Below are positions 7,636 to 62,905 of a DNA stretch of 64,000 bases, piece by piece. Within the stretch, counting starts at the first letter, position 1, and each line of letters starts with the position of its first letter. Under the pieces are notes generated by a model. The model saw nothing but the letters and a program-made list of their open reading frames with translations. It made no database searches and had not been told where the DNA came from. This DNA comes from Octopus vulgaris (lineage: Eukaryota), in the NCBI GenBank assembly GCA_951406725.2, contig OX597839.1, positions 6,820,001 to 6,884,000 of the forward strand, in the 5' to 3' direction. Made by a program: the position numbers and the translations under genes.

Positions 7636-7732
7636 AGTATATATATATATATAGTGAGACTCATATATGCATGAAGACGGGTGTGTAAACAACAAACAGA
7701 TGTATTAGTTTAATGCTCGGGCAGTGAGAAAG

Positions 7733-7770
7733 TCTTTTATGTTTCGAACCTACGCTCTTCGGCAGAAAGG
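7733..7770 (-). ncRNA. Minimal hammerhead-like motif, CUGCCGA core, degenerate stem III (family Y)
   Basis: Reverse complement ccttt CTGCCGA a gagc gtag gttc GAAA cat a aaaga; homologous to 61305-61342. Confidence 0.55.
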
Positions 7771-7813
7771 AACAGAAATAAACAGGGAGAGAAAATAGAA
7801 AAAGGTTTAGTGG

Positions 7814-7860
<47 letters not shown>

Positions 7861-12248: not shown

Positions 12249-12470
12249 TTCTCTTTTACTCGTTTCAGTCATTTGACTTTGCGGCCATGCTGGAGCACCG
12301 CCTTTAATCGAGCAACTCGACCCCGGGACTTATTCTTTGTAAGCCCAGTACTTATTCTATCGGTCTCTTTTTGCCGAACCGCTAAGTTACGGGGACGTAA
12401 ACACACCTGCATCGGTTGTCAAGCGATGTTGGGAGGACAAACACAGACACACAAACATACACACACATAC

Positions 12471-18320: not shown

Positions 18321-18386
18321 ATTCAAATTTATAGAATGCAAAAGACGAAGACAGGTGAGGGAACAGCAAGCAGGTATATTAGTTTG

Positions 18387-18801
18387 AGCTGGCGAGCTGG
18401 AAGACACGTTAGCGCACCGGGCGAAATGCTTGGCGGTATTTCGTCTGCCGCTACAATCTGAGTTCAAATTCCGCCGAGGTCGACTTTGCCTTTCATCCTT
18501 TCGGGGTCGATTAAATAAGTACCAGTTACGCACTGGGGTCGATGTAATCGACTTAATACCTATGTCTGTCCTTGTTTGTCCCCTCTAAGTTTAGCCCCTT
18601 GTGGGTAATAAAGAAATAGGTATTTCGTCTGCCGTTACGTTCTGAGTTCAAATTCCGCCGAGGTCGACTTTGCCTTTCATCCTTTCGGGGTCGATTAAAT
18701 AAGTACCAGTTACGCACTGGGGTCGATGTAATCGACTTAATACCTATGTCTGTCCTTGTTTGTCCCCTCTGTGTTTAGCCCCTTGTGGATAATAAAGAAA
18801 T
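18387..18801 (+). mobile_element. SINE family A with a 184-bp internal tandem repetition and 15-bp TSD
   Basis: TSD aggtatattagtttg at 18372-18386 and 18802-18816; body repeated from ggtatttcgtctgccg at 18435 and 18619. Confidence 0.92.
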
Positions 18802-18838
18802 AGGTATATTAGTTTGTGGCTCGAGAAGAATGGAAAAG

Positions 18839-18876
18839 TCTTTGACGTTACGGGTATAAGTTCTTCGACAGAAAGG
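18839..18876 (-). ncRNA. Decayed hammerhead-like motif, CUGUCGA core (family Y)
   Basis: Reverse complement ccttt CTGTCGA a gaacttataccc GTAA cgt c aaaga; the host repeat (aaaagacgaag.caggtg..ttagt) matches 61232-61342. Confidence 0.5.
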
Positions 18877-18966
18877 GATGAGAGGAAGAAATGGAGAGAC
18901 AACGAATTAAAAAAAACGGAGAGGGAAAGGTATACAGGGATTAACAGTCCAACATGATATATATGT

Positions 18967-30985: not shown

Positions 30986-31262
30986 GGAGAGGTACAGACA
31001 TCAGGTCGACAGACACACGACCAGATACATTGAGGTTGAGAGAGAAGGTAAAGCAGAAAAAAACCCCAGAATAGTGATGAGAGAAGGCAGGATGATTTAA
31101 TGATGAAAACTATTAGTTTGACAGAATAGACAATGACGTTTCGGACTTAGTCATTCTTTAACATATAGTGTAGAATTGAAAGCGAACGGGGAAACAACAT
31201 AAAAAATGTTAATAAATACTAAAATAAATAAAAGGGGACTCAAGTAAAGTTATTGACTAATG

Positions 31263-35240: not shown

Positions 35241-35563
35241 CTTTTACTCTTTTACTTGTTTCAGTCATATGACTGCGGCCATGCTGGAGCACCGCCTTTA
35301 ATCGAGCAACTCGACCCCGAGACTTATTCTTTGTATGCCCAGTACTTATTCTATCGGTCTCTTTTGCCGAACCGCTAAGTGACGGGGACATAAACACTCC
35401 AGCATCGGTTGTCAAGCGATGTTGGGGGGACAAACACAGACACACAAAGACTCACACATACATATATATATATACATATATACGACGGGCTTCTTTCAGT
35501 TTCTGTCTACAAAATCCACTCACAAGGCTTTGGTCGGCCCGAAGCTATAGTAGAAGACACTTG
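35241..35563 (-). mobile_element. SINE family B, head truncated
   Basis: High similarity to the 16159 copy. Confidence 0.88.
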
Positions 35564-43183: not shown

Positions 43184-43250
<67 letters not shown>

Positions 43251-43910
43251 TAGTTATCGCCATACTAATATGGCATTCTTATAAAAATAAGAATAAAGCT
43301 GACCGCTTATTAGCTCCATGAGGCCATCGCCTTAAGTTAGCTATTTGATACACAAACTGATGATATAACCTTTGAACAAGGAGTCAGTCGCTCCACACTA
43401 CTTGGCCGGCAGCTACAGACGCGTTTCGGGGTATTGCCCTTTCAATGCAGCGTAGCCAAACCAGTAGGTGTCGCTTCTGACAATCTCTGTTCAAAGGTTT
43501 TATTTACCTAGCTTCGGTGGAATACATCCACTTGTTTTCAATAATAGAAATATTAAAATTACAGTGCTGAGAACAACGCGTTCCTGCGCATACTAATATG
43601 GCATTCTTATAAAATAAGAATAAGCTGACCAGTATAGCATCGCTTAGTTAGCTATTTGATACACAAACTGTATCCATATAACCTTTGAACAAGTAGTGTG
43701 GAGCGACTGACCTCCCTTGTTCAAAGGTTATATGGATACAGTTTGTGTATCAAATAGCTAACTTAAGGCGATGGCCTCATGGAGCTAATAAGCGGTCAGC
43801 TTTATCCTTATTTTTATAAGAATGCCATATTAGTATGGCGATAACTAATATTTTCCAGGAACGCTGCCGTTGTTCTCTTTTAGAGAGACTTAGTAATTTT
43901 AATATTTCTA

Positions 43911-45808: not shown

Positions 45809-47971
<2,163 letters not shown>

Positions 47972-60791: not shown

Positions 60792-61304
60792 CAGCAAAAG
60801 TTTTAACGAAAGCGTATATTGTTGTTAAATGCTCGAAATACGAGACTAGAAAAAAACACCCAACAACTAATGGAGGGTCGCTCCTTATTTTGTTTGCTTT
60901 TTTTCTTTTTGTGTATTTCATTGTTCCATGTATACGTACTTCGTACTTTGTTGTATACGTTTGATGACGTCCTATGCCAACATATGCATATATATACATA
61001 TACATATATACGTATAGATGTAAGTATGTATATATACGTATGTATATATGCATATATATATTATTTATATTATCATATGATTGAACACTACGCATCCTTT
61101 TCCGAGTAAGGTTTATATATATATATATATGTATATACATATGTGTGCGTGTATATATGTATGTATATATGTATGTATGTATGTAATTATATATATATAT
61201 ATATATAACGGGAAGCTTTATGAAAATGAACAAAAGACGAAGGCAGGTGGAATACAAACAAACAATTGTTTTAGTATGGCGCTCAGGAATATAAATAAAA
61301 CAAG

Positions 61305-61342
61305 TCTTTTACGTTTCGAGCCTACGCTCTTCAACAGAAAGA
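61305..61342 (-). ncRNA. Minimal type I hammerhead motif, CUGUUGA core (family Y)
   Basis: Reverse complement tcttt CTGTTGA a gagc gtag gctc GAAA cg TA aaaga; perfect stems I and II, acgt palindrome, GUA triplet. Confidence 0.75.
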
Positions 61343-62114
61343 TACATAGAAGAGAAACACGGAGAGAAACAAGGAGAGAAAAAAATGCGTGCAGAAGCTA
61401 GCGAATCAACATGATATATATATATATATATATATATATGTGTAATTATATATATATATATATATATAAATACATACATACACACATAAACACACGCATA
61501 CATACACACATATCCATACATATCCGTATCCATCCATCCATACATACATACAGACATTTACATTCACACACCTATATATTATTATACATTGTATCAAGCT
61601 GAAATTGTCATCGTCACTTTCATTTCACTTTCATTGCCGCCTCTGTTATTTCCTTTATTATCGTTTCCCTTTCGCCGCTATATCTCCCCACCCCCACCAC
61701 CACCACCTTATCTAACCATTCCTCCACCCCTACCCTCCCCCACTAACTATATTCTTCCCAATTTCCGAATTCTCTCCCCCACCCCCACCTCTCTGCGTGT
61801 CCCCGACCCCCCAAATTTCCGCTCCAAGAATTTTCAATTTTAACAGAATCAACTTTTATTATAAACATTACATTTTATAGTTGCTGTTTATTGTTTGCTT
61901 TGACGTTTATAGTATTGTGTTGTTTGTGCTGTAGTTTTTATGGTGGAGGTTGTTGATGTTATTGTTGTTGTGGTGGTGGCGATGGCGGCGTTGGTGGTGG
62001 TGGTGGTGATGGTGGTGGTGCTGATATCGATATAAGCATTTTCGGTTTTTGGTGTTTAGTACACTAATTTACCGCCTTCTGTGCTACTGCTGCTGCTGCC
62101 GTTGCTACTGCCCT

Positions 62115-62638: not shown

Positions 62639-62905
62639 TCCGCAAATCCCAAATTATATTTAATTTGCCTCGCGGGACCAACTGTTTACCAGAAGACGCA
62701 TCTTGTCCTAGTGCTCGGAAATCCGGAGTAGATAAAACAGTGGGCAACTGATGAAGGGAGTGTTCTTTTATGTTGCCTGCCTCGTTTTTCTATTTGGCTC
62801 TTTCGTTGATCTCAAAAAAGTTCGTTTTCCATGTCGTCGTAATTCATGTTCTCGCTTTTCATGTCGTTTTAGTTTAGTGATGTCCTGTACACATATCTAC
62901 ATGTG
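62639..62905 (+). mobile_element. Interspersed repeat family X
   Basis: Colinear with 7368-7635. Confidence 0.72.

Follow-up and report, generated by a model that had tools for sequence, protein, structure and literature searches.

The A at position 6 is treated as a fixed base of the hammerhead core, and genome searches for hammerhead ribozymes require it. Among the described systems closest to the repeat analysed here are the minimal hammerheads of metazoan Penelope elements, which lie in terminal repeats, are mostly solitary, and are inactive as monomers and weak as dimers (Cervera and De la Peña 2014, PMC4209133; this paper and PMC3088659, PMC7151607, PMC7229834, PMC6765202, PMC9901934 and bioRxiv 10.64898/2026.07.22.740005 are cited from excerpts). 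Small Penelope hammerhead variants that have a short palindromic stem III and cleave as dimers were reported by Lünse et al. (RNA Biol 14:1499, as cited in PMC6765202), and a short palindromic stem III is common to those variants and the motif described below (PMC6765202). Core position 6 is naturally a pyrimidine in the Bcep176 hammerhead as well, an A6C variant that cleaves with low activity and prefers manganese (PMC3088659, PMC7151607). However, Bcep176 is a single phage sequence with C6, whereas the present case is U6, family-wide, and belongs to a very abundant animal repeat (PMC3088659). A Penelope core variant that is likewise family-wide and missed by the standard descriptor is the U3-A8 minimal hammerhead of Schistosoma Cercyon elements; there the variant is a compensated base pair, whereas no compensating change was seen for A6U here (PMC4209133). 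Non-LTR retrozymes, which have been proposed to derive from Penelope-like elements, resemble the present repeat in being non-coding, a few hundred bases long and equipped with a type I hammerhead (PMC7229834; bioRxiv 10.64898/2026.07.22.740005). Retrozymes, in the excerpts of these two papers, form tandem units and circular RNAs and carry canonical or minimal motifs, whereas the copies found here are solitary and yielded no circle junction at the listing threshold.

Recently active Penelope families have been reported in Octopus vulgaris in a study that does not mention ribozymes (PMC13282606), hammerheads are not mentioned in two cephalopod repeat papers that were checked, and A6U, A6C and A6G are not mentioned in PMC11014351. 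Literature searches turned up no natural A6U hammerhead family; the largest motif survey (Lünse et al.) and Perreault's figure of inactive variants may already include one. The alignment of Lünse and colleagues reportedly comprises about 150,000 sequences.

The window, that is, the whole 64 kb stretch of DNA that was analysed, is microsatellite-rich animal DNA with no recognisable gene in its long reading frames; its abundant SINE-like repeats are, we presume, of octopus type. It holds three diverged copies of one repeat, designated Y1, Y2 and Y3 (Table 1), with blastn homology at E 4e-14 between Y1 and Y2 and E 7e-5 between Y1 and Y3. Three near-full copies within 64 kb suggest that the family is very large. 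The copies are solitary and lie 11-42 kb from each other, with no tandem copy in the window. A TA run occurs no more than 15 bases away at four of the six element ends checked (such zones make up 14% of the window), and a TA, CA or TATC run occurs near all six (24% of the window), in agreement with the description in the earlier note of a short, non-autonomous element (~200 bp) beside microsatellites. No Penelope ORF was recognised among the 146 frames of at least 110 aa in the window, and Pfam named none of three frames tested, one of which is on the metagenome contig L129. A short frame at 47065-47397 (+), downstream of a TATC tract, gave no Pfam match; we take it to resemble a LINE ORF C-terminus. 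A different abundant repeat abuts Y3 on its 3′ side. Two head-to-tail copies of it adjoin Y3 at 18500-18805, and another abuts the 3′-only family fragment at 18390. Short matches to the downstream ACTAA box of the family at 43243-43271 (+), 43827-43862 (-) and 62866-62890 (-) are non-significant (E 2-3) and are possibly tiny fragments.

Table 1. Copies of the repeat and parts of the hammerhead-like motif, in window coordinates.
Feature	Positions	Strand	Remarks
Y1 repeat copy	61208..61412	minus	about 205 bp, flanked by two (TA)n tracts; family reads of runs X1 and X8 together cover all of it
Y1 minimal type I hammerhead motif	61305..61342	minus	sequence, descriptor scan, depth peak on 61302-61341
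Y1 stem I	5′ arm 61342-61338; 3′ arm 61309-61305	minus	
Y1 core heptamer; extra A	61337-61331; 61330	minus	
Y1 stem II; loop II	61329-61326 with 61321-61318; 61325-61322	minus	
Y1 GAAA; CG; U16.1; A17	61317-61314; 61313-61312; 61311; 61310	minus	
Y1 position 6	61334	minus	U where the canonical hammerhead has A
Y1 position 7	61333	minus	free position
Y1 predicted cleavage site	61309..61310	minus	3′ of GUA, inferred from hammerhead numbering
Y2 repeat copy	7650..7815	minus	motif 7770-7733 with C6, C7, G16.2 to A
Y3 repeat copy	18800..18955	minus	motif 18876-18839 with U6, C7, decayed stem II, A13U
3′-only family fragment, without hammerhead	18339-18390	minus	nhmmer E 1.3e-6
Possible decayed distant relative	31110..31172, motif 31131-31168	minus	nhmmer E 0.033; covariance model E 0.063

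In each copy the motif is laid out as core heptamer, extra A, stem II, GAAA, palindromic two-base stem III and stem I. The heptamers read CTGTTGA in Y1, CTGCCGA in Y2 (7765-7759) and CTGTCGA in Y3 (18871-18865), and A6 is absent from all three, with U at that position in Y1 and Y3 and C in Y2 (7762). The stems of Y1 are perfect: TCTTT pairs with AAAGA in stem I (5 bp), GAGC with GCTC in stem II (4 bp), and stem III is the palindrome ACGT. All the remaining core features (C3, U4, G5, N7, G8, A9, G12, A13, A14, A15.1, U16.1 and H17) are present in Y1. The unpaired extra base after A9 and the G10.1-C11.1 pair occur in three of three copies, and the palindromic 15.2-16.2 stem without loop 3 is ACGT in Y1 and Y3 and decayed in Y2. 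Decay otherwise takes different forms: in Y2 stem I has 4 bp, stem II includes a G-U pair and CAT replaces CGT; in Y3 stem II is broken and GTAA replaces GAAA. The earlier note had described three diverged copies, each with an extra A after the heptamer, none with canonical A6, perfect stems in Y1, and a short stem II followed by GAAA-cgt-H or a decayed version of it; direct sequence comparison and blastn agree on all of these points. Of the positions it gave for the copies (61305, 7733 and 18839), each is the low end of a motif and not the position of the heptamer.

Y1 has the structural features of the Penelope minimal hammerheads as excerpted from PMC4209133: type I topology, a helix I of 4-5 bp, an extra base between 9 and 10.1, the G10.1-C11.1 pair, a palindromic 15.2-16.2 without loop 3, a U-rich 5′ flank, and mostly solitary, dispersed copies. 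Even A17 of Y1 recurs in one listed Xenopus minimal hammerhead family (PMC4209133). It differs from them at position 6, which is U here and A in 56 of 56 examples in Fig. S3 of that paper, whose search descriptor fixed the catalytic boxes. The minimal hammerheads excerpted from PMC4209133 sit in Penelope elements, whereas the present repeat is known without a linked ORF and its cleavage is only predicted.

Variation across the family was assessed in 4 of 24 listed public sequencing runs, with 61208-61412 as the reference, reads or contigs at least 80% like Y1, and differences listed from 5%; under this filter, a sister family that had A6 and different stems would escape notice. X1 (organism A; 13,670 records placed on Y1), X8 (organism D; 9,318) and X9 (organism E; 5,974) are DNA or unlabelled contig runs, and X22 (organism E; 1,598) consists of raw RNA reads amounting to about 6% of the run. 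Summed depths across Y1 do not equal copy numbers, and the read tables give single-column shares, without haplotypes or stem covariation. Within 61302-61341, just three variable places are found among the 40 of 60 variant rows listed. These are position 7 (61333), where U makes up 53-58% and the rest is C, A and G (about 45% non-U); the first loop II base (61325), which varies at 5-29%; and C15.2 (61313), which changes to U in 4-20% with a wobble pair retained. Two of the three are CpG sites. Neither position 6 (61334) nor the other core positions of Y1 (3-5, 8-9, 12-15.1, 16.1 and 17) are among the 40 of 60 rows listed.

The share of A6 was deduced by matching tallies of change types to the listed rows and not counted directly; it is below 5% in X1 and X8, because the tallies there leave no A>T place unaccounted for. 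By the same deduction C6 and G6 are also below 5% in X8, where no change from A is left over. One A>T place is unassigned in each of X9 and X22. If the rows were selected by share, A6 probably stays under about 19% in organism E, the level of the least variable row listed. Reads clipped at A6 can be few at most, because 98% of the X22 depth runs on past position 7. Since about 45% of the family is non-U at position 7 and every other letter at position 6 stays below 5% (X8), most position-7 variants carry U6, and the family core is therefore CUGUNGA, an A6U core in which position 7 is free and the C6 of Y2 is a minor state. The core CUGYYGA given in the earlier note does not hold for the family, as position 7 takes all four letters, and of the ancestral A6U/A6C core proposed there, U6 is indeed dominant but A6C is not borne out, C6 being minor (below 5% in X8).

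The 36-base motif is better conserved than its flanks. A core-versus-flank comparison had been set beforehand by the earlier note, and the motif exceeds the flanks in it: identity between Y1 and Y2 is 32/36 in the motif and 75/125 in the flanks (Fisher p 0.001), between Y1 and Y3 28/36 and 52/100 (p 0.01), and between Y2 and Y3 26/36 and 52/89 (p 0.16, not significant), the flank alignments being gappy and T-rich. The read data point the same way. Depth in X22 falls from about 1,500 over the motif to about 4 at 61229-61298 and to about 100 at 61355-61382, so that nearly all placed reads of this RNA run from organism E fall on the motif, and in X9 the ratios of motif depth to these two flanks are about 5,000 and 13. 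The contrast of motif with 3′ flank is just 1.6 in X1 and 1.9 in X8, as Y1-like flanks are common there. The RNA reads of X22 are equal on both strands and none spans the whole element, a pattern compatible with copies of the repeat being part of other transcripts or with a library that is not stranded. This sample of about 6% of one cDNA run contained no pile-up of RNA ends anywhere, which says little on cutting, and no circle junction at the listing threshold.

Given that Y1 has each structural feature of the minimal hammerheads in PMC4209133, the repeat is taken as the 3′ end of a Penelope element. Y1 is likely a pseudo-LTR piece from the 3′ end of a Penelope-like element; the link to Penelope rests on architecture, as no Penelope ORF was recognised in the window and no tandem copy lies in it. 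The motif is likely a new natural A6U variant of the weak Penelope-type self-cutting RNAs, with predicted activity. To the fuller reading, in which the CUGUNGA repeat would be a Penelope-like 3′ tail copied into TA microsatellites and its motif a slow, dimer-only putative ribozyme, we give as much credence as doubt. The proposed sequence of events would start from the minimal type I layout itself (the extra base after A9, G10.1-C11.1 and the palindromic ACGU stem III) and from a U6 that stays dominant while position 7, loop II and 15.2 vary in a motif better conserved than its flanks. Since U6 must accompany almost every position-7 variant, the fold would have stayed under selection after the loss of A6, with master copies as its target while the family amplified. 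In a transcript that holds two motifs in tandem or partial tandem, these would then pair via ACGU and cut after GUA, and the resulting RNA end would be copied into (TA)n by Penelope reverse transcriptase and GIY-YIG endonuclease; Naiad elements are described as targeting (TA)n, and Neptune elements are hypothesised to do so (PMC8557442). U6 is predicted to slow the rate and to permit an inactive rod fold in a single motif, so that most genomic copies would be inert.

Catalysis by such a core is favoured by the variable motif places, which are those that a hammerhead tolerates (among the 40 of 60 rows listed), and by the phage Bcep176 hammerhead, whose natural A6C retains activity (PMC3088659, PMC7151607). 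However, the best fold of the Y1 monomer is a rod (-10.2 vs -7.8 kcal/mol, pair probability 0.98) that pairs G5 and U6 with C15.2 and A15.1, burying G5, U6 and A15.1, and the best two-strand fold of Y1 (-26.8) differs from the double hammerhead (-14.7); the energy models behind these values ignore tertiary contacts. Published mutants, as excerpted, also argue against it: a scan of a type III hammerhead found low activity for single changes within the CUGA region (PMC9901934), and A6C strongly slowed a mouse-gut hammerhead in magnesium (PMC7151607).

Two ways in which the hammerhead itself could be illusory are nearly excluded. That the resemblance arose by chance in a repeat of other origin seems very improbable. 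Rfam hammerhead families gave no window match at the gathering score and none on the motif up to E 10, the fold z-score of the motif is an unremarkable -1.1, and no autonomous partner was found in the window, all of which such a coincidence would explain; yet a descriptor of Y1 stringency matched in none of 100 block-wise dinucleotide shuffles, four of four checkable extra hallmarks of Penelope minimal hammerheads are present, and the pattern of variation fits the model. A relaxed descriptor with positions 6 and 7 free matched Y1 and Y2 only in the window, whereas the same number of shuffles averaged 0.05 matches. Still harder to credit is a true core that begins two bases later (YYGAAGA), restoring canonical A6. 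The three copies do contain TTGAAGA, CCGAAGA and TCGAAGA, but in that register stem I fails to close on the core and stem II loses pairs, whereas the first register has perfect stems, and 61333, which takes four letters, would become the invariant U4; this family variation contradicts the shifted register.

The serious rivals accept the Penelope origin or the hammerhead ancestry and doubt the catalysis. The Penelope-derived motif may no longer cut and may be kept as a structural signal, such as a U6-stabilised rod, for a partner reverse transcriptase at the RNA 3′ end, an alternative that we regard as possible though rather doubtful. Conservation would be accounted for equally well, U6 makes the helix U4-G16.2, G5-C15.2 and U6-A15.1 that dominates the Y1 monomer ensemble, core mutations usually reduce activity sharply (PMC7151607, PMC3088659, PMC9901934, as excerpted), and PMC4209133, in the part cited, leaves non-cleavage functions open. 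However, a U7-A14 pair belongs to the rod as well, while any of the four letters occurs at position 7; variation falls at places that the hammerhead tertiary fold tolerates; and Y2 forms no rod. It is improbable, in turn, that A6U inactivated the motif in a single master copy that then succeeded, and was carried neutrally, with the motif a dead relic. Naiad elements spread without canonical hammerheads (PMC8557442), sporadic A6U does exist (in the metagenome contig L129 one Penelope-like end has U6 and its inverted sibling A6), and CpG sites make up two of the three variable places, all consistent with such a relic. A relic should nonetheless drift like its flanks, whereas the motif is a conserved island across subfamilies and organisms, and position 7 has changed repeatedly while positions 4, 5, 6 and 8 have not. 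A slow, U6-tolerant ribozyme is preferred over both because selection would have gone on after the loss of A6, sparing just the position free of a role in catalysis.

A bolder claim, which we advance tentatively and would not presume to be correct, is that CUGUNGA defines a class of hammerheads that do cleave, is fixed in a family of retroelements and recurs in the Penelope elements of other animals. If true, the class would probably comprise at least tens of thousands of copies in several related animal species and would have been missed by every CUGANGA descriptor, and U6 might be a built-in switch, locking the monomer in the rod or altering metal preference as A6C does. A U6 family under apparent fold selection tests whether Penelope hammerheads must cut or serve as recognition structures. 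Should the U6 dimer cut, the core would be more tolerant than mutagenesis suggests and published counts would miss a class; should it not, conservation without catalysis would point to a non-catalytic role.

A more distant relative of the family possibly lies at 31131-31168. It is the best match of both the profile and the covariance model outside the training copies, yet borderline in score. U4, G5, U6 and U7 are retained, A stands at positions 3 and 8, and the surrounding segment (31110..31172) has GAAA-CGT-C with other stems and shares a downstream CAAACTAATA box with the family; the covariance model indicates one possible compensatory stem pair in this borderline copy. The earlier note had suggested a very distant relative at 31131-31170, and its standing as the best independent match with U6 kept speaks for that suggestion, but with C3 and G8 lost it is graded as possible only, even though U6 and the downstream box are kept. 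Two stretches of a very abundant SINE-like repeat, 12329-12400 (+) and 35323-35378 (+), are faintly motif-like, reading TTTTGCCGAA, a CCG/CGG hairpin and then GGACGTA (nhmmer E 0.067 and 2.5, respectively); they could be a hammerhead remnant or chance.

Other sequence collections contained no exact match to the family pattern in metagenome, prokaryote-genome or viral contigs. With a generic U6 pattern, both stems had at least 3 bp in 9 of 115 metagenome matches (116 loci), in 1 of 29 matches in prokaryote genomes and in 0 of 84 viral matches. An A6 control pattern gave 0 of 43 in prokaryote genomes, too few for a U6/A6 ratio. Six of the nine metagenome matches belong to one family with a weak stem II, of which one locus, L101, lies inside a long reading frame; this family was set aside as chance. 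Single-copy U6 motifs elsewhere may reflect decay or a tolerated state. The inverted element ends on metagenome contig L129 lie at 1059 (+) and 488 (-), one with U6 and the other with A6 and a changed position 4. The frame beside these ends presumably resembles a Penelope GIY-YIG domain, and Pfam did not name it. Motifs of U6 minimal-hammerhead type were also seen in L216 at 1526 (-) and, as a near miss, in L117 at 2531 (-); these two contigs, like L150, contain eukaryote-like sequence. L216 is a contig from a prokaryote genome bin that includes eukaryote-like sequence with simple repeats, and it may be chimeric or contaminated; its other part resembles, we assume, a C-terminal stretch of elongation factor Tu. 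The U6 motif at 1534 (+) of L150 is close to the Neptune motif of Acropora digitifera (PMC4209133, Fig. S3, as excerpted).
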